DNA of 64,000 nucleotides, taken from positions 237,081-301,080 of the forward strand of contig NIVC01000346.1 of the NCBI GenBank assembly GCA_002269645.1. Direction: 5' to 3'. Origin of the DNA: Macrostomum lignano (taxonomy: Eukaryota). The notes beneath the pieces were generated by a model. That model saw nothing but the letters and a program-made list of their open reading frames with translations, did no database searches and had not been told where the DNA came from. This document shows positions 13,152 through 38,233 of this stretch, in pieces. Position 1 is the stretch's first letter, and each line of letters begins with the position of its first letter. The position numbers were made by a program, and so were the translations under genes.

Positions 13152-15741
13152 TCAGATCATTCCTGTCTGTTGCTGCAGTTGCTGTGGCACCAGCGAATTG
13201 TCAGCCACTTCAGCGCAGCCTTCCGATGCTTTGCTCACCTTTTTCCTGTGCCGCTTCAGCAAGCAAAGTTCCAGTAGTTCAACGGCAAAAGCGCAGGTCA
13301 GACCCAGAGTGAGACTGCTCAGGCCGCCAACTTGACTCATCAGCGCGCTGAAGCTCAGCGACAGCGTCTCTGTTTTCTGGATGGTGTTTCGTGTCTGCCT
13401 CCGCACGGTGATGTATGCGAAGTCGCGACCGCTTGGCTCCAGCACTTGCGGTCCAGATATCGCCGTGAGATTTTCCGCCGTTAGGAAGGCGCGCAGCGAG
13501 TTCTTCGCCGACTGGATTGAAGCCTCAGCTTGGCGACGCTGCTCCGACGATGCGGTCAATTCGGCCAGTCGTTCCGAGGCCTCAGCCAAATCGCGGAAAC
13601 TTTTAGCCTGAAGGGCCAACCAGTGCAGTTGCCAGTCTGCCGCACGCCAGATTGTCTTGGAGGAGACCATCTCAAAGTCGTGATAGTGGCAGGGCTTAAG
13701 GCAGTGCGTGTCGCCCAGGTTTGCTCGCAAACTCGGCAGGTTGAGTGACTGCAGACAGGCCCGACTGCGCAGCACTGGCTCCACGCCACGGCGATAGTCG
13801 CCACAATACGGATGCGTTGCATTTGGTGGAGTCTCGCGCAGAAGGTCGGCAAAGTGGCAGCCGCAGGCTTTCAGCACTATCCTGCCGAGCTCCTGGCGCA
13901 AGCAGCCCTCCTGCGAGTAGGCAAAGTCACGTCCGAGGTCCAACACGCGACGCGATGAGGCGAGGGTTTCAGGCAGGCAAGCATCAGTCGGACTGCCAAC
14001 CTCGATCAGGCGCACAGGTTGGTAAGCCATCTCGACCATCTTGCCCGGCGCCACGTGAATGCCTCAGTCGGTTGGTTCGGGGAAGCGATCGTGCTCCTGC
14101 AGCTGCACACGGAAGCCGCTAGCCTGCTGGAAGGCGTCCTGCACGAAGGCCTGCTCGTGCGGATCGGCCCCGTGTTGGTGGTGGCTGTCGGTGACTCTCA
14201 GCACTACCGTAAGCGAGTCGATAGTAGGGGTGGCCTGCGATGGTTTGAGTTTCAAGCGGGAATCTAGTTCCTATGGCACAAATACCCTGACTGTGCCTAC
14301 AATAAACCGTGAACAGTGGAGCTTGAGCAATCATGACAATTTTTTAGGTCAAATATTTTTGTTTTCAAGTTGATAAATGGGACAAAATGACCGCTCACAA
14401 TACAATCACTGCCACTCTCACCAAGCTCTTCAGCGATTAAAATTGAAGGTTCCCTAAAAATTTGGACGTGTCAGAATTTAAATCGAACCACTTCCGGTCC
14501 CGGCACACCAGTCAGCTGTTGCTACATCTGGGCAGCGCTAACACAGCTCTCAGCTTTATAATAACTATGTGCTAAATATTGAAAAATTCTTAAAATACAA
14601 AATATTCTCTTCAAACAGGTTAACAGTGTGATTACAGGAAAATTTTCTTTACTTTCAATTCAAATTGAAAGTTCAAACCTGTTCGTCGAGGATATCTTTG
14701 GTCAGAACAATAGGTCGTCTTTCTTCCCAATTTTGTTCGTACTAATAATGATAATAATAATTGATTACCCCTGCCCTAATGGCCAGATGTGCAACCGACA
14801 GCTCAGCCGCAGCTATTGCGCGGCGCATCTGAAGGCTGCGTACGGCTGTTCAGTCCAAAGACTGGGCGGTCGCCACACACACCCTCAATTACCCCAGCTA
14901 ATGCTGGCACCCATTTTACAGCTGGGTAAACTGAAGCAATGCAGAGTTAAGTGTCTTGCTTAAGGACACAAATTGTTCCAGTGGGATCGGGAATCGAACC
15001 CCCGGACCTTCAATTCGTGAGTCCGAAGCTTTAACCACTAGCCTACAACCCTAAGTCTTCCCAACTTTGTTTTGTACTAGTTAAATCAATAGTTGATTCG
15101 CACACATTCAGCACGCAGACACGAGTCCAATAACAGGTCGCACCTGCACTCACTTGAACCTGGAAGCAGTTGAAGTAGTCCGGCAGGCTGATCAACTTTA
15201 GCAGCGTAGCGCAGCCGTCTCCGCTGCTCATCTCCATGAACGAGCCCGTGGCATTGATGCAGAATATAAATAGCTGCTGGGCTGTGTGGCTCAGCTTCTC
15301 TGCGTCATCCGGCTCCAGGTTCTGATAATAGACCCGCTTGGAATCGCTAGCCAGAATCTCTTCGGCGCCAATGTGATCCCCCGCGTCGAACATCTTCAGC
15401 GCGTGGGGGCGCAGCATTCTAGAAAAATTGGTCGGCGACAGGATCTGGCCGCTCTGCCAGAGCTTGCGTCCGCTCTCTGAGAACGGATAGTGACCGCACA
15501 CGGTCACCGCAGGCCAGCTCAGCCCCGGATCATTCAGCACAACCGTAGTCTGGATGACCGTCTTGTAGCTCAGGTAGTCGGTAACGATGAAGCAAACGCA
15601 GGTGACTAAGAAGGCGGCCATTGCGGCCACGTAGGCGGTCCAAATGCAGCGCAACGGACGCGTTGGTGCTTTCACAGTTTTGGCAACCCCGCGAAGCGAG
15701 GTGGCCGTGCAGAACAGCTCGAAGTCCTGGCGCAGACCCAT
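13152..15741 (-). pseudogene. DEG/ENaC/ASIC-family ion channel gene, 2 exons (15741-15154, 14270-13152), ~568 codons, with a premature TGA at 14066-14064
   Basis: TSLRG pre-TM1, TM1, WPAVTVC, Cys-rich thumb (CLRQ..CGC..YC..CLKPC) and LMSQVGGLSSLTLGLT TM2. Phase-0 donor CAA|GTGAGT and acceptor CCATAG|GAA. ORFs 14064-14255 and 13152-14054 are in the same frame, separated by one TGA. Confidence 0.85.
14745..15051 (-). mobile_element. tRNA-derived CORE-type SINE, family A, copy 1 (in the ENaC intron)
   Basis: A box TAGGCTAGTGG, B box GGTTCGATTCC, CORE-like TGTGTCCTTAAGCAAGACACTTAAC...CTGTAAAATGGG, AT-rich tail. Near-identical to two other copies. Confidence 0.9.
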
Positions 15742-16392: not shown

Positions 16393-17142
<750 letters not shown>

Positions 17143-18224
17143 GGTTTTGTGAGGTAGTGTATACTTTTAATCCATTCTTCAAAAAATTTGTTTAAACAGT
17201 ATTTTCGAAAATTTATGCATAAAAAACTAGAAATAAACATTTATGCGTGCATGTTGCTACTGCTTCACCGAAAAGAGTAGCGAGATAAAGATTTTGAAAT
17301 AGAAACCTGAGGAAATCAATTTTTTATGAACTACTTTCACCTTTTGTTTTTGGAAGAATTCAGTAAAGCATATGACGTGATTCAGTTGAAATGACCAGCT
17401 GCAGAATTTCATTGAAACACAATCTGCTTAAAGCCCTAGTTATTCAAAACACTTCGCCTATCATACCGGCTTTCTGCAGTATTAGAGAAAATCCTTGCGT
17501 GTCACGACCAGACAGAAAACTATAAATGTTTTTCTTATAAAAAATCGAAGCTATAAGGCAGGCAACTGTTTGTACGGAGCAGCCCGAAACACGGCAGACT
17601 GAGATGAAGGGTGTTTGCCTAATTTTTTCTATCAGTCAAAGACACGCAAGATTTTCTCAAGCGGAAATGTTGAGTGTCTTCAGAAGAGATTCTCCAGTGG
17701 AACAGGGGGGCCGGGCATCGAGAGGGGAGAACGGAGCATACGCTTGGCTCAGTGCCAAAAACCTCATGGCACATCGCCTTCCCTGAGGCGCTCCAATCAT
17801 TTTAGGCCCCGCCGTTCTCACTATGAGCCTAATGGACCGAAAACCGGAGCTGCAGGAAAATCTTCAGTGATTCCATAAGCCTGTTCTTGAGCAACTTTGC
17901 AACAACTGATGCTTCTTTAATCTGATCTGCTTCATTTTTCTCCATCCAATTTAGCCCGTACCCCGCCTTCTTATCCCCCACCTCTAATCTGATTGGTTGA
18001 GCAATGAGTGCTTCTGTGAGGCAGATATTAACAAGCTCTTGTAAGCAAATTCCAAACATAAAATACTACAGCTTCCTTGCTAGCTGTCAGGGTTCTGTCA
18101 GTCAGATGCAGCAAGCAATGATTCCCAGAAGTCCCAAATTCGCGTTGAAGGTAAGTTGACAATTTAATTAACTGTAAACTGTATTTTGTTGCAGTTGACC
18201 CTATAGAAAATATTAAAGATAACG

Positions 18225-18420: not shown

Positions 18421-18480
18421 GAGATAGATCTCATTGGCAAAGAACTGTATACAGTTATTTTATTGTATATAAATTCTAAC

Positions 18481-18780
18481 GGGGTTGTAGCCTAGTGGTC
18501 AGAGCGTCGGACTCGCGACTTGAAGGTCCGGGGTTCGATTTCCGATCCCACTGGAACAATTTGTGTCCTTGAGCAGGACACTTAACTCTGCATTGCTTCA
18601 GTTCACCCAGCTGTAAAATGGGTGCCAGCATTAGCTGGGGTAATTGAGGGTGTGTGGCGACCGCCCAGTCCTTGGACTGAACAGCCGTACGCAGCCTTCG
18701 ATGCGCCGCGCAATAGCTGCGGCTGAGCTGTCGGTTGCAGATCTGGCCGCCCAATTGGGGCAGGTGTAATCAATTAAAAT
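18481..18780 (+). mobile_element. tRNA-derived CORE-type SINE, family A, copy 2
   Basis: GGGGTTGTAGCCTAGTGG A box, GGTTCGATTTCC B box, CORE-like segment, same 3' body as the other copies. Confidence 0.9.
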
Positions 18781-19787
18781 AATCAATTGTGTATAGAACT
18801 GCATATTCGCATTTTTACCTAAATATGCTACTGATACAGACCAGTAGTATAGAGCAGTTTACAGCACAAGCAGTCAGTTACTGAATCCCTACAACTGAAC
18901 TCTGGGTAAGCAAGTGATCAGAATCCCGAGGCCGATGCACCGATCTCAGCAGTTCAACATGATGAGGAAGGAAATTTGATCCGCAGAAATTCGATTACTT
19001 TACCCTTGGCGAAAGACCGGGTGAGTGCTGAGGGGGGGGGGGGGGGGCAGCTCCCATCGTCGAACCAGATGCTGGCCAATCGAATGCTTCTAGTAGAGAT
19101 GCTTTAATGCTCGGATTTTCTGCTTCTGCTGTTGATCTTGCTTTCTGTGAGTGAAGGAGATAGGCGAGCTGCGACAAGCTGGGTGATGGCAACCAGTGCT
19201 CTACGATCGGGGCTGCAGGTAAGCAATGAAACCAGAGTTTTGCCAGTTGACACCAAAAACGAACTACATGAGTAGTATGAGTTTACCGCACTTGCACTGC
19301 GGAGATAGGCGGTAATGTAAAAGAATAGGAGGGTGTAAAAGAGCCAGCTGAGATAGCCAATGGAAATAAGTGGCGTGGGGTGGGTGCGATTTGCTGGGTG
19401 GCGGGTGGTGAAACGCTTATGCAACTCTGCCGCACTATTTGTCAGTGGAGTGAAATAGATAAGAGAGAGGCTCTGGTCTTCTTGGGTGTCTGCCTCTGGC
19501 GCACTGGCATTGTTAAGAAATGAGCAATAAACTTTGTGACGGGTTGTGCTGTGGGGTGGGCTTCTTGCTGCTCTGATATGATTGGAGGGGGTAGTGAATG
19601 TAACAGTACGAGCGTACTTGTGTCATAGCATATAATAATACATAAATAAAAAATACGAGAGAAGAAATGAACAAGATAAGGACCCCTAGTGGTTCATATA
19701 TATATATACGAGTATACAGCAATTAATCCGAGACCTGGACTGACTTGGACTGCTCTACTTTCACAAGCAATCATAATAGCATTGAAA

Positions 19788-20705
19788 ATGAAAACAAAAA
19801 GCAAGACTGAGGCAAGCCTCTCAACTTTTGAAGTTTGTCTAAGCTGCGAAAAAAGTGTTCTTGGAGCACTTAAGGCAGGTCGCCATCTAAACTGTAAGCG
19901 CTGTACATGGTCTGTCTGCTGGCAGTGTGGCATTATAAAGCCTGGGAAAAATATCTTGGCCTCTCGCTATCGAGGACACCAGCTGCTACCCTCTGGTGAT
20001 GAAGGGATCCGCGATTTGCGACGTGATGTTTTCCAAAAAGCGCAGGAGCAAGAAAAGAAGCAGGCTGCGAGAAAGCAAGTTCTTAACGAGGTCATCAACG
20101 TTGTAGTCGCAGAAGCCAATAGCAATGATGATTTTGTCGGCCGTGGAACTGCACATCATGCCGTTGAACCGCTTGTTCGCCAGCCGCCACATACTCGGGG
20201 TAAACAGCTCAGGATGGGCAGCCCCGATATGAACTTCAACGAGGAGCCCAGTGACTATGGAGATGATAATGACCAGGCATTCGACATCAACGAGCAGCCG
20301 CTGCCTGACACCAACGATCAGCAGCTGCCTGACGCCAACAAGCAGCCGCTGCATGGTGTCAACGGGCAGCCGCTGAATCGTGTCAACGGGCAGCCGCTGA
20401 ATGGTGTCAACGGGCAGCCGCTGAATGGTGTAAACGGGCAGCCGCTGAATGGTGTCAACGGGCAGCCGCTGAATGGTGTCAACACGCAGCCGCTGAATGG
20501 TGTCAACGAGCAGCTTGCAAGCATCAATAACATTGGTGAACAGATGGCCCAGCCAAACATTATTGAAGAACCGGCTGGATTGGATTTCCTGATGGAGGTA
20601 TTGGGAGACGGTGAATTGGAAGCTGCTAACAATATCGTAACTCGATACCAGCTGCAACTCGTGCTGCCACCAGTACAACTGTCAAAACTTAACTTAGCTG
20701 AATAA
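19788..20705 (+). CDS. Element ORF1: N-terminal Cys-rich zinc finger (CxxC...HxxCxxCxxxxCWxC), charged helix, and 8-aa repeats (GQPLNGVN)
   Basis: Intronless ORF with the first ATG at 19788 in the frame of the 19689-20705 ORF. TA-rich TATA-like tract near 19697. Confidence 0.6.
   Translation: MKTKSKTEASLSTFEVCLSCEKSVLGALKAGRHLNCKRCTWSVCWQCGIIKPGKNILASRYRGHQLLPSGDEGIRDLRRDVFQKAQEQEKKQAARKQVLNEVINVVVAEANSNDDFVGRGTAHHAVEPLVRQPPHTRGKQLRMGSPDMNFNEEPSDYGDDNDQAFDINEQPLPDTNDQQLPDANKQPLHGVNGQPLNRVNGQPLNGVNGQPLNGVNGQPLNGVNGQPLNGVNTQPLNGVNEQLASINNIGEQMAQPNIIEEPAGLDFLMEVLGDGELEAANNIVTRYQLQLVLPPVQLSKLNLAE
20295..20510. repeat. 24-bp coding tandem repeat (GGGCAGCCGCTGAATGGTGTCAAC), about 9 units
   Basis: Direct reading; in frame within ORF1. 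Confidence 0.9.
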
Positions 20706-21851
20706 AATTAGACAAAATCAAACCAAACTGAATTATCCATTGAGTCTCATCAGTCTCATCCAACCTCCAGCTCAGATTCAAAACGCTGCTGAGACACCTT
20801 CATTGTATCCTGCCTGCGCAGAGGATATGGCAGTTTCCGCTTCCGATTGTTCTCCACCTCAGCGGCATGAGCCCGGAATCGTAGGAGGTTGCGCGCCTGT
20901 CGAGTTAAGCGGCTAAATATGTTTGCTTGCGCCTCCTTGTGATTTCAATTAGCCTTTCAACTTTACTGGCTTTACTGTTCAATCGAAAGCTTAGAACACA
21001 AGTTCTTGTTCGAACGATAGTTGTTAGGCCGCCAGTTTTCTCGCTCGCAAGTTGGCCCATTTCTACTTTTCCGCACTTATATTTATACAACAAAATTTGC
21101 CTCAGTCAGCGTTATTTCAAACCAATAGCAATTGTAGCAAAAGAGTTCTAGATCAACGCAATTGCAAGAAAGTCTGGGAATTATTTCTTTGGTGCGAAAG
21201 TTTGGATGCCTGCATGCCAGTTTCATGTGAACAGCGAAATTGGACACCGCCGTTGTGCGTCATTCGGCGGCTCCAAACTTTTTGCGGTTGCAGCTGTATA
21301 TCGATGTCGCAGATTTTGGGCGCTGATCTCAGCAGTTTTCGTGAGAACCAGACGTTCAGACGTTCTTAGTGCAAGCCAATTTCAGCCGGCTAAACTTTTC
21401 TAACTTTCACTTGTGCCAACTGTGAATTGGCTATCTTATACCGATTTGAACTGTACTGCTTTGTGCGTTTGGCTGCTCAATTTTAGCTTACCATTTTAGA
21501 CCCTCCCCCTCCACTGAACTGATCGATTTCTATTTATACGTACAGTACTTCTTCGCAATGTACATCGTTTGTCCTAACTACATGTACTCACTTCTATAAT
21601 ACAATATAAAGGACCAACGCGTCAGTTTAGAAACGCTGTCTACAACTTGCGGCTCAAGCCAATTCAATCGCTTCGTCTCAATCTCACTTCATCACACAAA
21701 CCATTGAGCGTGGGAAGCACAATGAACTCCTGCTGAACTGGTCTTGCTGTCCAGCCTCGCCAGGTGACTCGACCAAGTGACACGACCAGGTGACACGACC
21801 AGGTGACCTAGCCTATCCCCGTTCCTAGACTTATGAGCATTTTCTTATGGC

Positions 21852-22502
21852 TCATAGGTACCACACCGGATCCTGCTGCAGGTCCGTGTCCTCCGCCGGG
21901 ATGTTCCCAGTCGATGTGCCGGCTCCGGCCAAAGGTGTGGAAGTCACAACCTCGATGTCGGTTGTCATCTCCGATGGTGAGCCGACCTCCTCCTCGCCTT
22001 CAGCAGCCTCAGTCTTGACCGGCAGTATGACGGTGGCGTCTTCGTCCTCATCTTCGGATGAGCTCAGCTCGTACTTCGCCCCCGCGCCTTGGTAAGGCTC
22101 TGATAGCAGCTGGTCTATCCAGTCCGAAGTCTGCCACAGCTTCTGCCAGAGCTTCGGAGACAGCGGCACGGTGTTGCGCTTCATAAATTCCTCACAGCAG
22201 TCCTCAGGCAGCCGCTTCAGCCAGATGAGGCCATCCTTGACTTGAACAAATTTGTCGAAGCCCAGCTTGATGACCTTGACCTCGTTGTTCAGAGCCGACT
22301 TCACCAGCGAGCGCTTTAACTCATTTAGCTTCGTCCACTGCTGCACATTCAGGTTGAAGCCAGGAACACCAGGCTTGAGGCTTGCTGTGCTGCCATGTCG
22401 GTAAAACTTCCTGATCGCGATGTATTTCTGGCCTTCGAATTCTTGCACCTGCACTCTGTAACCTTCACTAATATGCACTCTGTAACCTTCACTGATATCC
22501 AT
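21852..22502 (-). CDS. Element ORF2: PC4/Sub1-like ssDNA-binding protein (one clear and one degenerate PC4 domain) with an acidic tail, 216 aa
   Basis: YRVQVQEFEGQKYIAIRKFY...LKPGVPGFNLNVQQWTKL matches the PC4 pattern V.V.EF.G..Y..IR.YY....KPG..GI.L..EQW..L. A second copy is DKFVQVKDG..IWLKR...NTVPLSPKLWQKL. Confidence 0.8.
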   Translation of the reverse strand: MDISEGYRVHISEGYRVQVQEFEGQKYIAIRKFYRHGSTASLKPGVPGFNLNVQQWTKLNELKRSLVKSALNNEVKVIKLGFDKFVQVKDGLIWLKRLPEDCCEEFMKRNTVPLSPKLWQKLWQTSDWIDQLLSEPYQGAGAKYELSSSEDEDEDATVILPVKTEAAEGEEEVGSPSEMTTDIEVVTSTPLAGAGTSTGNIPAEDTDLQQDPVWYL

Positions 22503-23434
22503 AGTTCACCTGAACTCTGTAACCTTCACTAATATCCATAGTTCACCTGAACTCTGAAACCTTCACTAATATCCATAGTTCACCTGCACTCTGTAACCTT
22601 CACTAATATCCATAGTTCACCTGAACTCTGTAACCTTCACTAATATCCATAGTTCACCTGAACTCTGAAACCTTCACTAATATCCATAGTTCACCTGCAC
22701 TCTGTAACCTTCACTAATATCCATAGTTCACCTGCACTCTGTAACCTTCACTAATATCCATAGTTCACCTGCACTCTGTAACCTTCACTAATATCCATAG
22801 TTCACCTGCACTCTGTAACCTTCACTAATATCCATAGTTCACCTGCACTCTGAAACCTTCACTAATATCCATAGTTCACCTGCACTCTGTAACCTTCACT
22901 AATATCCATAGTTCACCTGAACTCTGTAACCTTCACTAATATCCATAGTTCACCTGCACTCTGTAACCTTCACTAATATCCATAGTTCACCTGCACTCTG
23001 TAACCTTCACTAATATCCATAGTTCACCTGAACTCTGTAACCTTCACTAATATCCATAGTTCACCTGAACTCTGTAACCTTCACTAATATCCATAGTTCA
23101 CCTGCACTCTGTAACCTTCACTAATATCCATAGTTCACCTGCACTCTGTAACCTTCACTAATATCCATAGTTCACCTGAACTCTGTAACCTTCACTAATA
23201 TCCATAGTTCACCTGCACTCTGTAACCTTCACTAATATCCATAGTTCACCTGCACTCTGTAACCTTCACTAATATCCATAGTTCACCTGAACTCTGTAAC
23301 CTTCACTAATATCCATAGTTCACCTGCACTCTGTAACCTTCACTAATATCCATAGTTCACCTGAACTCTGTAACCTTCACTAATATCCATAGTTCACCTG
23401 CACTCTGTAACCTTCACTAATATCCATAGTTCAC
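22497..23434. repeat. 37-bp tandem array, about 25 units, each a copy of the first 37 nt of the PC4 ORF
   Basis: Minus-strand unit ATGGATATTAGTGAAGGTT(A/T)CAGAGT(G/T)CAGGTGAACT. Period of 37 counted directly. Confidence 0.97.
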
Positions 23435-24006
23435 ACAAAATCACTTCGAAAAACTTGTGAAATCGAATTCAAGAAAAAAAAATTTACCGTTGAATTTAAA
23501 AATCTGGGGCTCAAAGCGGAGTGGGGTGGGTGGCATTTTTTGATTATTCGGCATCAAGCAGCGGCTGCTCGTCGGCGTCAGCCACACAACCCGTCACAAA
23601 GTTTATTGCTCATTTATTAACAATGCCAGTGCGCCAGAGGCAGACGACACCCAAGAAGGCCAGAGCCTCTCCCTTAGCTCGTATCTATTTCACTCCACTG
23701 ACAAATAGTCTTTGCTTTGCTACCTGCCTCTCTCAGTGCGGCAGAGTTGCATAAGCGTTTCACCATCCGCCACCCAGCCAATCGCACCCACCCCACGCCA
23801 CTTATTTCCATTGGCTATCTCAGCTGGCTCTTTTACACCCTCCTATTCTTTTACATTACCGCCTATCTCCGCAGTGCAAGTGCGGCAGAGTTGCATAAAC
23901 TCATACTACTTAACATGTATTTAGTTGGACGGGAATTTTCATCTTTTACTTTTGTTGGGAACAGATCAAAAGTTAATGCTTTTAATATTACTTTTATATC
24001 TTATGA

Positions 24007-24308
24007 GGGGGGTTTAGCGTAGTGGTCAAAGCGTCGGACTCACGACTGAAAGGTCTAGGGTTCGATTCTCGACCCTACTCGGAAAATTTGTGTCCTTGAG
24101 CAAGACACTTAACTCTGCATTGCTTCAGTTCACCCAGCTGTAAAATGGGTGCCAGCATTAGCTGGGGTAATTGAGGGTGCGTGTGGCGACCCCCCCCCCC
24201 CAGTCCTTGGACTGAACAGCCGTACGCAGCCTTCAGATGCGCCGCGCAATAGCTGCGGCTGAGCTGTCGGTTGCACATCTGCTCATTGGGGCAGGTGTAA
24301 TCAATTAT
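24007..24308 (+). mobile_element. tRNA-derived CORE-type SINE, family A, copy 3
   Basis: A/B boxes, CORE-like segment and 3' body shared with copies 1 and 2. Confidence 0.9.
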
Positions 24309-24590
24309 TTTTTTACTGGCTTTTTCATTGCTTCACTGATTGTTTGTAAAACTTTCTTTTTACTCGCAATAAATAAGGGGATCTATATGTTTAGATATTT
24401 AGATTTTAGATGCGTCATTGCAAAACAGCAATACGTAAAAGTCAAGTGTATTCCTGCTTTAGGCTATTAATTTACACCGTAAACTAAGTTGTCCTTGGTT
24501 GAAATTATGGTAGTTAGACAGGTGTAAAATTCTGAAACTGTGGGCTGTTGTTTTAAAATTAAACATAAAAGTTCATCAATTCGTAAGCAG

Positions 24591-27500
24591 GGTCACAAAC
24601 AGCCGCCCACAGCAGCCAGAGATGAGCGGCCTCAGAGTTCGCCTCAGCGTCAAGTGAAGAAACAGGCGACGAAATCCGTCTTACAAGATTCTCCATCTAA
24701 GTTGCGGCGAGGGCAAAGCTCCAGGTAAGGCTGTGGGTGACACAGGCTGTGGGTGACACAGGCTGGGGGAGACACAGGCTGTGGGTGACACAGGCTGTGG
24801 GTGACACAGGCTGTGGGTGACACAGGCTGTGGGTGACACAGGCTGGGGGAGACACAGGCTGTGGGTGACACAGGCTGGGGGAGACACACAGGCTGGGGGA
24901 GACACAGGCTGGGGGTGACACAGGCTGGGGGTGACACAGGCTGGGGGAGACACAGGCTGGGGGTGACACAGGCTGGGAGAGACACAGGCTGGGAGAGACA
25001 CAGGCTGGGGTGACACAGGCTGGGGTGACACAGGCTGGGGTGACACAGGCTGGGGTGACACAGGCTGGGGTGACACAGGCTGGGGTGACACAGGCTGGGG
25101 TGACACAGGCTGGGGTGACACAGGCTGGGGTGACACAGGCTGGGGTGACACAGGCTGGGGTGACACAGGCTGGGGTGACAAGAGTGGTGACAGTGCAGTC
25201 CTGTGCAGTTTCGCAGCCTCTCACATGCAATTTTTACTAGCAGTCGCAAGCAACTAGATTTGAGCAGCCTGTACTTTAAGTGTACTTCTCACACCCCATG
25301 CTTCAGGACGGAAGTCATGCTAGACCAGGCTGTGTGCAGAATCGAAGTCCTGGAGAGAGACGCCGACAGCATCAGATCAACTCTGGCTGTAAGCCGGGAG
25401 CAAGACGCAGATAGCTTTTCTTTAGAGCCCATTAGCTCGAGGCACTGAGGCCAGGAGGACAGCAAGATGCGATAGTGGCAGCGGCTGGGGCTGGCGACGC
25501 CCGTGATTAATTGGTCGAATCTGGCGCGATACTTTTTCCCTCCCCGCCCTGGTCACTTCGCCATCAATGCTGGGCTTTGATCTTCGCCGACTAGACGGTC
25601 AGATCTAGCTGTGGAGCGATGCGGACGCGGAGACTGGGTTGACAACGGGGGAACGAGGGCAGACTGGCTTGTATTTTTCTGCTTTTATTGGAGCCGACAA
25701 AGTGAAACTATTTTTGCTACAGATAAGGGTAAAGCAGCTGTCAACTGGTGGGCCACCAGCATTATTGAACCTAGCGGAAGTGTGTCCCTTGTTTCCCTGA
25801 CAGAGGATTTTGCAGATTCTTTCACGCTTATACTTTTGTTCCGTCTCGCCTATAGGCTTTTAACTCTAGTCCTTTGTCTCCCATTCTCATGTCAGATATC
25901 TAATCTCACAGATCCAGATGCCAATTCTGATATCTAATCTCACAGATTCCAGATCCCATCTCCGATATCTAATCTCAAAGATTCGATCTCCCACCTCAGA
26001 CATCTAATCTGATCTCACGATTCCATTTCCCATCTCCTATATCTAACCTCTCACAGATTCCATCTACCTCCTCCAATATCTAATTTCACAAATTCCATCT
26101 CCCACCTCGGATATCTAATCTCACGGATTCCAGATCCCATCTCCAAAATCTAATCTCACAGATTCCATCACCAACCTCAGATATCTATTCTCACAGATTC
26201 CAAATCCCGTTTCTGATATCTAATATCACATTTCACAAATTCCCCTTTTCATCTCTGATATCTAATCTAAAAGATTCCATCTCCCATCTCTGAACTCCCA
26301 TCTCAATCTTGCTAAAGAAACTTAGCCGATCCAGAAATATCTCAATGACATCGCAGAGAAGAGAAGAGAAGCCAGCTGAAGAGCTGGGAAGTCGAATATC
26401 GATCTTTAATGCAGAAATGAGAGACGGCAGCAGCAGAACGAGCTGCATAAAGTCCGTTGGGAATGAGCGGCAGGGGGGGGGGAGGGTGGCGGAGAAGCAG
26501 GCAGTGATGAGAGTCGAAGATTTCTCCCAGCTAGTTGAGCGCATGTATTACACTGGGTACCGATCCTCGCTTCCATGCTGTCATACTTCTCAAGCAATAA
26601 TTCTTCCCACTGTTCGGGAAGATATATACTATCTGAAGTAGCGAATAACAGCGGGGAAAATTGCAAACTTAGACTTCTAATCACCAATTGACGATTTTTT
26701 AATGTATGATATAATATCTCATTTTAACCTATTATATAGTTTATTGTGAAATTAAATTACGCCTATTTCTCTACTTGCTTCAGTAGCAATGAACGAGTTT
26801 TTTATCTTTAATTTGAGAGCTTTTCCCCATGCTCGAAATTTTACGTCGTCGAAGGACAGAAGGTCTAGTGCAGGGTTTTGCAATTTTTTTTATTTTAAGG
26901 GCCAGATAGAGAACCTAGAGTATGACTGCAGGCCAGATGAGAGGAGAGAGGAGAGGGAATAGATAAGAGAGAAGAGAGATAAGAGATGAGAGATAGGAGG
27001 AAATAGATTGGCGAGGCAAGGCGAAAAGAGAGGAGACGAGAGGAGAGAAGATATGAAATAGGAGAGAAGGCAAAGGAGAATGGAGAGAAGAGAAGGAGAG
27101 AAGAGGAGAGGAGAGGAGAGGAGAGGAGAGGAGAGGAGAGGAGAGGAGAGGAGAGGAGAGGAGAGGAGAGGAGAGGAGAGGAGAGGAGAGGAGAGGAGAG
27201 GAGAGAGAAGAGAGTCGAGAAGAGACAAACATTGAGCGGGCCGGATTGCTATTGTGAAGTTTGAAAGGACCCGAGGGACCCGAGAGAAGCTTTGCGAGTC
27301 GCATGTGGCCCGCGTGCCGGAGGTTGCCAACCCATTGTCTAGTCAGAAGTCTCTTTAGCTGGCTCAAAACTGAACGATGCTGGCGATATGAAATTGCAAG
27401 CTTGTGAAGTTTCAAGTTTCCAAAAGCGAACCTGCCTTCGCACCCAACCCGCCCGCACCCAGGCCAGCCAATCGCAGGCCGATCAGCTGTTCAGCCGGCT

Positions 27501-28655
27501 GGAAAGCCTCGAGGAGGCCGGCTGCGAGCGTCGGCTGGCCGCCTTGGAGCTGGACAGCCGCCGACTGCGCCGCGACCTGCTGCGTACCAGCCGCAACACT
27601 GACCAGCTGGCCAATCAGATTGTCTGCAACTCGCTGGCGCACAAGGTCTGCTTTCAGAAGAGAATAAAATTGTCTAAATTAAAGCTTTTTTAAGTTCCCT
27701 ATTAAGCGTTTCTTTACAACGCCATCAAATGAGTAATTGAATCGCACGGATCCGAGTACAAGTCACGTGATCGAACCGAATTTTGGTTGCGTCTCGTGAC
27801 GCCTGCAGCGCGGTTCTCCTCACCAGCGGTTGGGACGAAGCTGGCTCCTTCCGTGTCCCTGAGGTACCGGACGTTAGCGGTATGCTCTCGGGCCTGCAAA
27901 CCTCGAAGAGGCGATTGAGCCTGGCCTTGGTGAAAACTGGGCAGTGGCAGATACGAGCTAAATTGTTCACCGTTTTCACTGCTTGAGCGGCAGACGAGAC
28001 ACTGCTCCGCCATGGAAGGTGGCGGATGGAGGGCCGTGCTGACTACTTAGAGGTACCTCTGGTTGAGCCTAAGGAGGGCTCTGCGCAGGAGGGGATGACA
28101 AGAGGCAGCATGTTTTCATTGATTTGTACATCATTCGTGCGATTTGCGACTCAGTTGATGGGAGAACACTCTCTTTCAGTTAGTTAATTGCCGCAAGGGG
28201 CTCTGGCACTGCCGAAAATCAAGACGACAGCCGACCGGTTTCAGAGTCTCACCGAGCAGAGCCGCTACCTGCGTCTGCGCCTGGACGAGACGGAGCAGCG
28301 AAGTCGCCACCTGGCCGCGGCGGTGGCTGCGCTGACTCGATTGGTGAGCCTGGAACAGGCCGGCTGTGACCCCGATGACCTGAGCTGCTCATCCAGCCTG
28401 AATTGCAGTCTGGAACTCAACTCCCGAGGGGACGCTATTAATGACTGCGGAGATGATCGCGAATCTGCGGCAGCAGCTCCAACTCGAGACGATGACGGCT
28501 ATTCGTCTCTGGCACCTGCGGCGATGGCTGCCGTTGCCGTCGCGGCTGCCGCGGAGGCTTCAGCCGGTCTGGCAACCCGCGTCGAGCCGGAATCGATGGA
28601 TGATTTTTACATCGACGATGACTTTGAGGTGCAGCGAGTTCTTGCTGGTAGATGA
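24591..28655 (+). CDS. Multi-exon coiled-coil protein gene, unidentified. Exons ~24591-24724, 25308-25388, 27473-27645, 28245-28655; the 5' exons are not resolved.
   Basis: Phase-compatible GT-AG junctions (CAG|GTAAGG, TTCAG|G, GCT|GTAAGC, CCCAG|GCC, AAG|GTCTGC, TTTCAG|AGT). Heptad-like peptides (IEVLERDADSIRSTLA, LFSRLESLE, LRLRLDETEQRSRHLAAAVAALTRL). Confidence 0.5.
24725..25180. repeat. 15/16-bp minisatellite (GACACAGGCTG[T/G]GGG[T/A]) starting at a splice donor
   Basis: Direct reading. 16-bp variants lie on the left and 15-bp variants on the right. Confidence 0.97.
25925..26300. repeat. Degenerate ~30-bp tandem repeat (GATATCTAATCTCACAGATTCCATCTCCCA)
   Basis: Recurrent ATATCTAATCTCACAGATTCC motif. 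Confidence 0.8.
26871..27337. mobile_element. hAT (Buster/Charlie-type) MITE containing an internal (GAGAG)n tract at ~26940-27215
   Basis: Ends CAGGGTTTTGCAA and TTGCCAACCCATTG. Flanks GTCTAGTG and GTCTAGTC resemble an 8-bp nnnTAnnn TSD. Subterminal GGGCCAGAT, GCGGGCCGGAT and GTGGCCCGCG motifs. Confidence 0.65.
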
Positions 28656-29550
28656 CACAGTGGGAGATGACACAGTGGGAGATGACACAGTGGGAGATGA
28701 CACAGTGGGAGATGACACAGTGGGAGATGACACAGTGGTAGATGACACAGTGGGAGATGACACAGTGGTAGATGACACAGTGGTAGATGACACAGTGGTA
28801 GATGACACAGTGGTAGATGACACAGTGGTAGATGACACAGTGGTAGATGACACAGTGGTAGATGACACAGTGGGAGATGACACAGTGGGAGATGACACAG
28901 TGGGAGATGACACAGTGGGAGATGACACAGTGGGAGATGACACAGTGGGAGATGACACAGTGGTAGATGACACAGTGGGAGATGACACAGTGGGAGATGA
29001 CACAGTGGGAGATGACACAGTGGTAGATGACACAGTGGGAGATGACACAGTGGTAGATGACACAGTGGGAGATGACACAGTGGGAGATGACACAGTGGTA
29101 GATGACACAGTGGGAGATGACACAGTGGGAGATGACACAGTGGGAGATGACACAGTGGGAGATGACACCGTGGGAGATGACACAGTGGTAGATGACACAG
29201 TGGGAGATGACACAGTGGGAGATGACACAGTGGGAGATGACACAGTGGTAGATGACACAGTGGGAGATGACACAGTGGTAGATGACACAGTGGGAGATGA
29301 CACAGTGGGAGATGACACAGTGGTAGATGACACAGTGGGAGATGACACAGTGGGAGATGACACAGTGGGAGATGACACAGTGGGAGATGACACAGTGGTA
29401 GATGACACAGTGGGAGATGACACAGTGGTAGATGACACAGTGGTAGATGACACAGTGGGAGATGACACAGTGGGAGATGACACAGTGGGAGATGACACAG
29501 TGGGAGATGACACAGTGGTAGATGACACAGTGGGAGATGACACAGTGGGT
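28651..29550. repeat. 15-bp minisatellite, 60 units, two variants GATGACACAGTGG(G/T)A
   Basis: Direct reading; 900 bp. Confidence 0.99.
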
Positions 29551-32430: not shown

Positions 32431-32847
32431 CTGTAAGAAATTTTCTATTTTAGTTGACAACGTGACATGCGTGAGATACATTAGCGGACCAGCGTTCTCG
32501 GAGTGGTTCTTTAAATGCGGTAAAGTTGGTCGTGTGCTCAGAGTTCAGTGTCACGGCAGATCTGATCAACTTTTTTATCCGAGGTTCAAGCATTCGGTCA
32601 CCAAGCGGAGAGGCAAATAGGTTTGCTAATAGGTCTGGCAAATAGGTCTGTAAGAAATTTTCTATTTTAGTTGACAACGTGACATGCGTGAGATACATTA
32701 GCGGACCAGCGTTCTCGGAGTGGTTCTTTAAATGCGGTAAAGTTGGTCGTGTGCTCAGAGTTCAGTGTCACGGCAGATCTGATCAACTTTTTTATCCGAG
32801 GTTCAAGCATTCGGTCACCAAGCGGAGAGGCAAATAGGTTTGCTAAT
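32431..32847. repeat. Tandem duplication of a 200-bp segment (32431-32630 and 32648-32847)
   Basis: Two identical copies separated by a 17-bp spacer. Confidence 0.95.
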
Positions 32848-33858: not shown

Positions 33859-36800
33859 TGTGGTATCCCCAGACTGACTGTTCATTTCATTTATCTATGC
33901 TTGTACCATAGAGTATTCTATTCTTTATAATACACGCGACCGCCAAGAGAAACTTTATATTGCTTGGCCACACGAACACCACATTGGTGGCAGCGGTGAA
34001 AAGAGAAAAGCTACGGATGTACTATTAAGAAAATACCTCGCAGGATGGCCTCAGCACAGTTCTACAGCATTGGGCATTTCGATCCAGACGAAGATCCGCT
34101 CAACAATGCAGATAAGTGGAACGAGTATGTGCAGGAAGTCGAGCTGTTCATGGAAGTGCAAGGAATAGCCGACGAAAAGAAGCAAGCTACATTCTTGCTT
34201 CTAGCAGGGCCGAAAATCCGAAAGCTGTTGCAAACCGTAAGCTATGAACAAGGCTACGAAGCAACGAAGGAAGCGCTCAGCTCTCTATTCCAAGGTGCAA
34301 CCAATAGCGGCCATGAGACTTACAAGCTGCTGTCAGTTAGCCAGATAGAGGGAGAAACGTTTGATTCCTTCTAAAGTCGTCTAAAAAGTGCAGCAAAGTA
34401 CTGCAACTTACACGTCGAGTACAAGCCTGGAGGAAACGAGAGTACAGTGAAGCTTAGCTTCGAGGATCGCCTGCTACGCGATCTGATAGTCCTAAAGAGC
34501 ACATCAAAGCCGCTAAGGACTCTGCTGCTAAAGGAAGGCTCTGACCTCTCCTTGAAGAAGGCAGTAGAAATCAGCAAGAATTTCGAAGCAACAAAAACGC
34601 AGGCTAAAGACATTGAAAAACCAACCAATGAGGCGCGCAACACAGTCAGCAAAATTGACAACAGACCAACTAACAAGCTACAGTTCAAACAGACTGACAA
34701 GCGGACATCAACTCTAAACACCAACAAGTGCGATCGAGTCTGCTACAGATGCAACAGAACAGGTCACCGTCCCTGGGATTGCTTCGCTCGTAACATGGAA
34801 TGCAAATTTTGCCATAAGAAAGGGCACATTAAGCAAGCATGTAGACTATGTCTAAAGACAGGGAGCAGAATAAAAACCAGAAATATTCAGATATCTGAGC
34901 AACCGGAAGAGCAAAATGGCAACGACGAATCGAATGGTGAAGAGATCAACACTGTCGCTAAGACTGAATCGAAGGACTCAGCAGGCGCAAGAGCCAAAGT
35001 GAAGATCAATGGTATTGAGAGTACAGTGCTCATTGACTCCGGATCTTCAGCAAGTTTGATAAGTATGAAATCGTGGGAGTCAGTGAAGTCAAAGGATACC
35101 GTCCTAAACAGATCAGAAAAGCCAAGACTATATGCCTATATGTCGGAAAAGGCGCTGGAAGTCTTGGGAACAACAACACTGGTTGTGATGGCTGGAGACT
35201 CAGTAAAGCGAATCAAATTTATCGTGACGTGCGGTATCAACGCTGAGACAATACTCGGATGTCAAGACAGCATTTATTTGAATTTGCTGCAGATAACGAT
35301 CAATCAGATTGAGAAGAAGAACGAAGAAATCGAACGAATTCTGAAAGATCATCAGGAGGTATTTCAGGGAGTTGGTAGATTGACCACGCAGCCAGCAGTG
35401 ACCATTGCTCTGAAGGAAGGAGTGCCGACATCACAATCGATAACAAGAGTAGCCGCCCATCTCAGAGAAGCACTCTTACAAGAACTGGAAGAGCAGGAAA
35501 ACTCAGGAATCATAGAAAAAGTTGATGGTCCCAGTGCATGGCTTTCGCGGCTAGTTGTCGTCCCAAAAGGAAAGACTGGTAAGGTACGACTGACCGTTGA
35601 CTTACGAAACTTGAACGAGGCAACGGAAAAGCTACAATTTCCTATTCCATCTCTGGATGATCAGCTCACCAATATGGGAGAAGCAAGCTGCTTCAGCTAC
35701 ATTGATGGCAAGAAAATGTTCCATCAAATTGAACTGGACAGTGAATCTAGACATCTGACAGCGTTCTCAACAGGAATCCCTGGACAACCGCTGTACAGGT
35801 ACAAACGATTGCCGATGGGTTGGGTCAACTCGTCATTCTATCTTCAAGCCTACATGACAAAAGTTTTGGCTGGTTTACAAGGACTGCTAAATATTCAGGA
35901 TGATATAATTGTGTATGGAAAGGACGTCAAGGAACACAACAACAGGCTAAAGCAGGTCTTAGCAAGGCTCGTGGAGAACGGCATGACCGTTGGAAAGGAA
36001 AAATGCAAATTTGGAATGAGTAAAGCTACTTTTATGGGATTTATTCTAACCGAGAAGGGAATAACCATCCACGAGAAGAAAACGGAAGCTATTCAAATGT
36101 TCAAACCACCGTGCAATCCAAGTGAAGTTAAATCGTTTCTTGGTCTAGCACAATTTGTTGCCCGATTCGTACCAAACCTAGCAACCTTGTCGAAGCCTCT
36201 GAATGACCCCACAAAGAAAGGAAAGACCTGGGAATGGGGTCCAGAACAAGAAAATTCTTTCAACAGCATCAAAGCAGCGATTAGCTCAACGGAAACGCTC
36301 GCGTACTTTGGAACAGGGCGAGAAACTCAGCTGCGAGTAGACGCTAGTCCTGTCGGTCTTGGTGCGATCTTGGTTCAGCGGCAGAAAGATGGAAATCTAC
36401 AGCCAGTTTGCTATGCCAGTAGAACTCTCACAGACGTGGAGACTCGATACAGTCAAATCGAGCGAGAAGCATTGGCAATTAAATGGGGATGCGAGAAATT
36501 TTCTCACTTTCTCAAAGGAGCAGCCGAATTTACGGTAATAACGGATCATAAACCTCTACTCGGATGTTTTGCATCGAACTCAAAACCACCACCAAGAATT
36601 GAGCGTTGGGCAATGAGATTGCAACCATTCAACTTTAAGATAAAATATGAACCAGGCGACACTAACGAGGCAGATATTTTGTCAAGACAACCGGTGAAAA
36701 CACCAAACGACACACTCTGCAATCGACGCGACATCGCATTCATTAACAGCAAACTTGAAAGCGCAGTAAGCACAGCTCTGAGCTTAGAGCAGATCCGAAA

Positions 36801-38233
36801 AGATTCTGCGATTGATGATGAAATTGTCGAGGCACTGGAATCAATAGTATCAGGAGGAACATGGAAAAAGCACAACAAACTATTTGCAGAAAGAAATAAA
36901 CTATCGGAGCAGAATGGAATTCTCCTGTACGAAGACCGCATTGTCTTGCCGAAGAGTCTGCGACAAAAAGCTCTGTTAATTGCCCATGAAGGACATCAAG
37001 GCATTTCCAAAGCCAAAGAACGACTGCGAAGTACCGTATTTTGGCCTGGTATAAGCAAAGACGTGGAGATCTTTTGCAAGAAATGCAATGTGTGCATCCA
37101 CACAACGAAAAAAGGAAGTCGGATCCCAATTGTGCCAACGGAAATTCCGGATAAGCCGTGGGACAAAGTGGCAATGGACTTCAAAGGACCACTTCCGAAT
37201 GATTGCAACCTGCTAGTTTTCATCGACTACCACTCGAGATTTCCTCTAGTGTTCATCATGAAGCGCACAGAAGCGAGCGACATAGTGCGAATTCTAAAGA
37301 AAGTGATTTCACTATTTGGACCAATGAAAAAAATCGTCTCAGACAACGGAACAAATTTCTGTTCGAAAGTCGTTGACGAATACCTTAACAATCAAGGCGT
37401 CATTCACTCACGGATAATTCCGCGTCACCCAGCAGCAAATGGGGAGGTGGAAAGATTCAATGAAACATTGAACAAAGTCATCAGAAGATCCAGAATTTTG
37501 AATGGATCAAGTTTTGAAGAGGAATTGCAAATCTTCTTGCATGCCTACAGAACAATGCCGATGAGAGCAACAGGCGTAGCGCCAGCAAACCTTTTCTTTC
37601 GGTGGAGCGCGCGGACAAAACTTCCTCAAATGAACGACGAGACAATAGATCCTTTGATTAAGCAGAAAGATAAAGACGCCGACTACAAAAGAAAAATGTC
37701 CAACTACGCTAATCGGAACGCTCGTGACTGCGACATCAAAACAGGTGACACAGTAGTGATTGAAAGGGAAGCAAGGAACAAGTACGATAGTTTTTTTGGT
37801 ACAGAGCAATACTACGTAAGGAAGCGAGTCGGAGGACTGCTGATCCTGGAGAACAAAAGTGGCACAATCAAGAAGCGCCACGTTAACAAGGCCAGAAAGA
37901 TATTCCCAGACTCAGAATCTGACGAGGCTCTGGTATCGTTTTCTGGTGGAGGAGGAATGAGCGACAGTCAGCGAGAAAAGAGGGACGCATCCGAAATACC
38001 ACAGCGTGATCCAAGAACAATGCGCAGAAGTGGACTCCGACCACAGACTGTACTGAGGAGGCCAATTCGTTTCCCTACAATGAACTGATTTTACTAAAGT
38101 TGGAGGGATGTGGTATCCCCAGACTGACTGTTCATTTCATTTATCTATGCTTGTACCATAGAGTATTCTATTCTTTATAATACACGCGACCGCCAAGAGA
38201 AACTTTATATTGCTTGGCCACACGAACACCACA
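33859..38233 (+). mobile_element. Full-length Ty3/gypsy LTR retrotransposon, 4375 bp
   Basis: Identical 125-bp LTRs (33859-33983, 38109-38233; TG...CA). PBS TGGTGGCAGCGGTG (tRNA-Leu-like), PPT AAAGTTGGAGGGA, TSD GTAAC/GTAAT. Confidence 0.98.
34045..38088 (+). CDS. Single-frame Gag-Pol (capsid, two CCHC-type knuckles, protease, RT, RNase H, integrase) with one in-frame TAA at 34372-34374
   Basis: CYRCNRTGHRPWDC, LIDSGSS, IQDDII, VDASPVGLG, TDHKPL, HEGHQG..CKKC, SDNGTNF, NGEVERFN. Domain order PR-RT-RH-IN. Confidence 0.95.

Follow-up and report, generated by a model that had tools for sequence, protein, structure and literature searches.

The DNA analysed here is a 64,000-nucleotide stretch of the Macrostomum lignano genome (contig NIVC01000346.1, positions 237,081 to 301,080 of the forward strand; hereafter the window, whose own numbering is used throughout), and its subject is a 4.6-kb element at 19271-23910 that invites comparison with Polinton/Maverick elements and adintoviruses. 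The element is bounded by long terminal inverted repeats (TIRs) and contains two long open reading frames (ORFs) only, ORF1 and ORF2, both intronless in their reading frames. When an internal tandem array and an inserted segment are subtracted, ~2.7 kb remains. The element and its flanks comprise the following features:

19265-19270, plus strand: TACATG, left copy of a probable 6-bp target-site duplication (TSD)
19271-19548, plus strand: left TIR, 278 bp, opening with (AGT)2 and without four stretches (10, 28, 7 and 3 bp) that are found in the right arm
19788-20705, plus strand: ORF1, 305 amino acids (aa), convergent with ORF2
20283-20514, plus strand: 24-bp in-frame tandem repeat inside ORF1, about 9.7 units
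20756-20881, minus strand: C-terminal tail of the PC4-like gene, now detached; it is basic and shares 51-63% identity with those of three related proteins (P0001-P0003)
20882-21855, no strand: intervening non-coding segment, unclassified, ~0.97 kb, flanked by a 4-bp direct repeat
21852-22502, minus strand: ORF2, 216 aa, the 5' piece of a gene resembling MOSUB of adintoviruses, stopping where the intervening segment starts
22474-23434, minus strand: array at the start of the PC4-like gene, 26 x 37 bp, units 98% identical on average, with 25 upstream ATGs
23585-23910, minus strand: right TIR, 326 bp, closing with (ACT)2 and containing a 20-bp internal direct repeat
23911-23917, plus strand: TAACATG, probable TSD, right copy, one base longer than the left

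The two TIR arms are identical at 273 of 278 aligned bases (blastn E 5e-105) and differ by five substitutions and four gaps, all of the gaps being bases absent from the left arm. The element begins with AGTAGT and ends with ACTACT, a hexamer counted 44 times in the window on both strands. A preliminary description of this DNA had proposed TIRs of ~280-330 bp, these same termini and a near 6-bp TSD, and the ends are indeed as described there. The flanking TACATG and TAACATG are likely a TSD with one extra base, since only 330 to 598 of the 63,992 window positions (0.5-0.9%, depending on the edit-counting scheme) match the left hexamer this well. Directly inside the right TIR lies a 33-bp stretch (23552-23584, minus strand), 85% identical in inverted orientation to the ORF1 repeat at 20326-20358 (E 5e-5), and it may be left over from a longer arm or from template switching. 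The TIR ends fold no better than shuffled sequences, and no second copy of the element was found within the window, either by blastn of the element or by testing four parts of it for shared 16-mers. The imperfect TSD, the four gaps set against only five substitutions and confined to one arm, and the unexplained ORF1-like stretch would all suit a chimera, in which recombination or rearrangement linked the left end of one Polinton copy with the right end of a second, the arms and flanks thus stemming from different insertions. However, unrelated flanks would agree this closely only at the low frequency just given, unless the integrase prefers this target, and a chimeric origin is considered decidedly improbable.

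ORF2 comprises two PC4-like repeats in a single chain, together with an acidic linker, and its residues 11-61 match the Pfam family PC4 (E 1.8e-8; 34.2 bits versus a cut-off of 25). Its close relatives, P0001-P0003, are whole proteins of 246-272 aa that include the tail and are 53-60% identical to ORF2. A profile search returned 69 proteins at E<=0.001, and the alignment was composed of 14 hand-picked new one-plus-one-repeat proteins, most of which span both halves, together with P0001-P0003 and the window domain, the remaining profile matches, which mostly carry between two and four canonical PC4 repeats (as judged from a scan of 29 of the 71 proteins), being omitted. Conservation among the relatives reaches 68-73% in the fold versus 27-37% in the linker, a pattern that, at the level of protein, speaks for selection on the gene family and not on the short element. 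One canonical and one diverged PC4-like repeat are present in P0004-P0007, P0009, P0010, P0012, P0033, P0034, P0037, P0039, P0040, P0046 and P0047, which show 22-53% identity to the window domain; this family probably represents the MOSUB-type proteins of other Polintons. Atlas look-alikes of P0004, which serve as leads only, belong to mollusc, nematode and arthropod clusters of PC4 proteins 221-251 aa long (0.82-0.85), and a pattern search of prokaryotic genomes gave 51 matches, none of them confirmed.

The predicted model of ORF2 (predicted local distance difference test, pLDDT, 92.9; predicted template-modelling score, pTM, 0.84) shows two strand-rich repeats with helices after each. Repeat 1 superposes on human PC4 with a root-mean-square deviation (rmsd) of 1.2 A over 63 residues, and the domain as a whole superposes on that of PUR-alpha, which also has two repeats (Z 9.9, rmsd 4.0, 116 residues). 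Foldseek gave no row at E<=0.001 against the PDB and a sole match at this threshold in BFVD, namely MOSUB from the Branchiostoma lancelet adintovirus (A0A5H3CIS2; E 3.1e-5, template-modelling score, TM, 0.73 of the query, 155 columns, 17% identity). Because this is the only viral structural match, the model indicates that the PC4-like gene would be a native accessory gene of Polintons and not captured cargo. Repeat 2 is not recognized as PC4 by sequence (hhalign probability 0.2, no higher than for 30 column shuffles), and its profile gave weak matches to 2 of 54 fetched proteins outside the alignment; its PC4-like nature is suggested by the structure model, the sequence alone failing to reveal it. 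Among the DNA-contact positions of PC4 named in the available text of PMC4350104 (F77, R86, W89, R100 and K101), F77 and R86 are kept in ORF2, W89 is replaced by Tyr, as in MoSub1, and R100/K101 are replaced by Val/Pro, and the binding of single-stranded DNA (ssDNA) by ORF2 seems plausible.

Hosts universally have PC4 proteins, multiple canonical PC4 repeats are present in many of the 69 profile matches, and no Polinton core gene ties the element directly to that lineage, so that a long-TIR DNA transposon of another kind (Mutator- or Foldback-like, or another DDE type), carrying a captured host PC4 retrocopy and an unrelated ORF, has to be weighed. Such an origin would nevertheless be a highly improbable one, given the exact Maverick end motif, the ORFs without introns in the frames read, and a protein of one canonical plus one diverged repeat whose best whole-length viral match is adintoviral. 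The marks of a Polinton-derived element, i.e., long TIRs (tens to about 1,500 bp), an (AGT)2//(ACT)2 or (AG)3//(CT)3 end motif and gene content common to Polintons and adintoviruses (here a single accessory gene), are all present. Two independent lines, namely agreement with published Mavericks in end motif, length of the TIRs and class of TSD, and an adintoviral protein as the best viral structural match of the PC4-like protein, make it very likely that the element is derived from a Polinton/Maverick.

The PC4-like gene carries two lesions. P0001-P0003 all run past the position of the ORF2 stop into a conserved basic tail, and this tail matches 20777-20881 on the ORF2 strand (tblastn E 4e-9, 7e-6 and 2e-3), ~0.97 kb downstream of ORF2. 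The detached tail is presumably similar to a nuclear localization signal. The intervening segment contains a 13-bp tandem repeat and, near one end, a 10-bp hairpin that is no stronger than in shuffles (z -0.9); no TIRs, no Rfam family, no Pfam family above cut-off and no other copy in the window were found for it, and it is perhaps a non-autonomous element of another class. The second lesion, the array, is built from the gene's own start, whose 8-mer is found 26 times. From the right TIR to the ORF2 start there are 27 ATGs, 24 of them opening 15-codon ORFs, and 25 short upstream ORFs precede ORF2; ribosomes scanning from a transcript start in the 151-bp gap between TIR and array, where transcription would presumably begin, would rarely reach ORF2.

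ORF1 contains three CxxC pairs (residues 17, 36 and 44) and a predicted long helix (residues 71-109), and an AATAAA overlaps its stop. None of 2,000 shuffles gave an ATG-initiated ORF of at least 228 aa, the length of ORF1 minus its repeat, and three spaced CxxC pairs within 35 residues occur in only 3 of the 368 window frames of at least 60 aa, the other two lying in a retrotransposon and a laminin-EGF exon. ORF1 probably represents a genuine gene, and its motifs could be those of a zinc finger. Searches with the full protein or with residues 1-150, among candidates limited to 167-534 aa, gave no homologs, PHROGs and NCBIfam gave nothing, and the Atlas matches, all at 0.86 or below, are leads only. 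An assignment to Pfam IBR (E 0.005-0.03) was rejected as under the cut-off, and a single-sequence fold of residues 1-110 was discarded as unreliable (pLDDT 53).

The Pfam scan of the element covered 57 translated stretches, which correspond to 56 of the 58 stop-to-stop frames of at least 40 aa (the two starting in the left flank were omitted), with ORF1 entered as two pieces without its repeat. PC4 was the only family above its curated cut-off, and at E<=1 there was no match to any family of polymerases, integrases, ATPases, proteases, capsids or transposases, although shorter or heavily decayed core remnants and diverged capsids may escape Pfam, ORF1 being the only long unassigned ORF. The core genes of an autonomous Polinton/Maverick, including a retrovirus-like integrase, capsid, packaging ATPase and protease, are lacking, and 4.6 kb offers no room for them. 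Among the eight window ORFs scanned, the sole rve domain belongs to a long terminal repeat (LTR) retrotransposon (34795-38088).

Taken together, the element is probably a passive, decaying and internally deleted Polinton/Maverick of the adintovirus type, whose two side genes are passengers. A parent of 13-25 kb would have lost its entire core (pPolB, integrase, ATPase, protease and capsids), leaving a TIR, ORF1, the MOSUB-like gene and the other TIR, ~2.7 kb in all before later expansions. The deletion could have brought together the outermost gene of each end or, alternatively, joined a native tail-to-tail pair to the far TIR, in which case the absence of core fragments would need no coincidence. 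Integration would have been performed by the retrovirus-like integrase of the parent family, which leaves a 6-bp TSD, acting either on the full element before the deletion or in trans on the short form, and the TSD is compatible with a deletion before integration (with a helper integrase in trans) or after it. Deletions in the left arm, the foreign insertion in the PC4-like gene and the slippage expansion of its start would represent later decay. In the parent, the PC4-like protein was most likely a single-chain PC4 pseudo-dimer binding displaced ssDNA, or a coactivator, and ORF1 most likely a zinc-binding nuclear regulator. In adenovirus-type models, replication keeps the arms identical. Because the arms have diverged and one gene carries two lesions, this copy appears no longer to replicate. 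In our judgement, the short form is somewhat likelier to be a one-off than to have passive sister copies.

Several observations weigh against this account. No core-gene fragment flanks either ORF, the convergent gene stops lie ~50 bp apart, tidier than a random deletion would be expected to leave them, the TSD is imperfect and no parent element was seen in the window. The link to MOSUB consists of one Foldseek match at 17% identity, with the gene position taken from label order. Moreover, ORF1 is open over 305 codons, and the ORF2 fold differs at 6 of 57 columns common to its four relatives, as compared with 2/53, 4/55 and 4/55 for P0001-P0003, so its folded part appears to have no clear excess of damage. 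As the fold deviates about as little as those of the nearest relatives, the lesions are probably young and, since ORF1 is also open, either the decay is recent or selection acted until recently.

In another reading, the short form would be an amplified, helper-dependent mini-Polinton, a satellite-like or defective-interfering-like element of an animal endogenous DNA virus, replicated and integrated by a helper. Its two genes, kept under selection, would serve to modulate the protein-primed replication of the helper or to compete for it, and this copy would be a damaged member. Both ends needed for replication and integration survive, ORF1 remains open, the PC4-like fold shows no damage, the layout is compact and tail-to-tail without core remnants, and polB-less polintons that stayed mobile, keeping other core genes, have been reported in insects (10.1101/2025.02.07.637071, in its available text). 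However, no second copy lies within the window, the PC4-like gene is split and burdened with upstream ORFs, so that the retained genes are not whole in this copy, the arms differ by four gaps and five substitutions, the conservation among the relatives concerns the gene family, and a helper with the same gene would supply the product in trans. This helper-dependent family is regarded as unlikely.

A passive deletion derivative remains the preferred explanation, and the element is more ordinary than the preliminary description suggested, which had nevertheless placed it correctly in the Polinton lineage and had rightly called it non-autonomous, in so far as it retains no core gene, noting the absence of transposase, polymerase, integrase and capsid. 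Its two convergent intronless ORFs are both there, but ORF2 is only the 5' piece of a split gene; of its two open cargo genes that might assist replication, ORF1 is open, whereas the PC4-like gene would be native rather than cargo, is split by an insertion and lies behind 25 upstream ORFs. As a decayed deletion derivative, the element is of minor importance, since degraded Mavericks are usual and named non-autonomous Polinton families exist. Were the short form a family, it would delimit the minimal cis-sequences that Polintons need in order to replicate and integrate, and it would demonstrate trans-mobilization, for which we know of no experimental system. Adenovirus and phi29 need an ssDNA-binding protein for their strand-displacement replication. 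The MOSUB-like protein, in whose model two PC4-like repeats are fused in one chain, is a concrete candidate for such a protein in Polintons.

The gene content around the element is that of animal genomic DNA; the window holds an LTR retrotransposon, a mariner fragment, and exons of a DEG/ENaC-type channel and of laminin-EGF and FN3 type. Three copies of a repeat of ~300 bp, whose 5' part is tRNA-like and which resembles a short interspersed nuclear element, lie at 14749-15051, 18468-18785 and 23995-24312; one copy is 85 bp away from the element, and another is situated between two ORFs of DEG/ENaC type. Coding pieces of an amiloride-sensitive sodium channel (ASC, DEG/ENaC) lie on the minus strand at 13152-15741, and a large multi-exon gene with laminin-EGF and FN3 repeats, which we take to be usherin-like, occupies 41026-64000. 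The LTR retrotransposon (33859-38233), whose pol frame is open over 1,097 aa and whose two 125-bp terminal direct repeats are identical, is young, and a mariner-type element (2200-3521) has a partial transposase and perfect 28-bp TIRs. Two further inverted-repeat elements, at 5565-7844 (65-bp arms, 98%) and 4696-5085 (49-bp arms, 86%), were assigned to no class, and an ORF at 8065-8469, ankyrin-repeat-like by eye, has an 85-bp partial duplicate at 9424-9508. Homogeneous tandem arrays are found at 16393-17146 (4-bp unit), 24728-25180 (16 bp), 28646-29549 (15 bp) and 32431-32847 (217 bp) and, because the window holds several of them, array expansion seems to be common in this genome.

In Polinton nomenclature, the letter N marks non-autonomous families. 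Polinton-1N1_DR is a named Polinton family (PMC9341505) and Polinton-N1A_NV still encodes the major capsid protein (PMC11296320), as stated in the available parts of these sources, while no apparent non-autonomous Polinton copies are reported in the corresponding part of the anole genome paper (PMC3014272). The element resembles both families and the polB-less insect polintons in being Polinton-derived without replication genes, as far as the available descriptions go, and differs from Polinton-N1A_NV and the insect elements, which retain the capsid or other core genes, in having kept none. A two-gene mini-Polinton was not found described in the literature covered, which excludes Repbase and most subscription papers. 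In the Polinton papers text-searched for 'PC4', the available text does not mention it, and an apparent literature match to Polinton plus PC4 was rejected, PC4 there being a cluster label.

Regarding the proteins, the whole two-repeat fold of ORF2 aligns with MOSUB, which is similar in size (203 aa, versus 246-272 aa in the whole relatives), but identity is low and the window gene is split and lies behind an array of upstream ORFs. The MOSUB label stands near the label of the right-hand inverted terminal repeat in the label row of Fig. S2 of the adintovirus maps, and in the available text of PMC8502044 MOSUB, for which no function is described there, is absent from the main text and occurs in that of Fig. 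S2. Like the adintovirus Oncoids, ORF1 is an accessory ORF in an element of Polinton type and has paired CxxC motifs (PMC8502044, section 3.2), but its identification as an Oncoid was rejected, since its three CxxC pairs are accompanied by neither LxCxE nor the CR1 Rb-binding motif. Among cellular proteins, repeat 1 corresponds to PC4/Sub1 and the whole domain to the two-repeat PUR-alpha domain; however, PC4 is a homodimer, whereas a single chain is predicted here, with Val/Pro in place of R100/K101 and a second repeat that is not PC4 by sequence.

According to the available text of PMC8097293, intact vertebrate Mavericks span 12.7-24.6 kb, with TIRs of 46-1,447 bp, 6-bp TSDs and 5'-(AGT)2//(ACT)2-3' as the commonest end motif; their genes form two inward-pointing modules, with accessory regions flanking the core, and 96% of their loci are degraded, large insertions included. 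Nematode Polintons are described with TIRs of 100-1,500 bp and TSDs of 5-8 bp (10.1101/2023.08.22.554363, available portion). Compared with these elements, the one described here is far shorter (4.6 kb, or ~2.7 kb stripped, versus 12.7-24.6 kb), lacks the core genes and has an imperfect TSD, but it has in common with Polintons/Mavericks the (AGT)2//(ACT)2 ends, TIR lengths in the hundreds of bp, a probable TSD of the 6-bp class, inward-pointing intronless ORFs and accessory genes located beside the TIRs.

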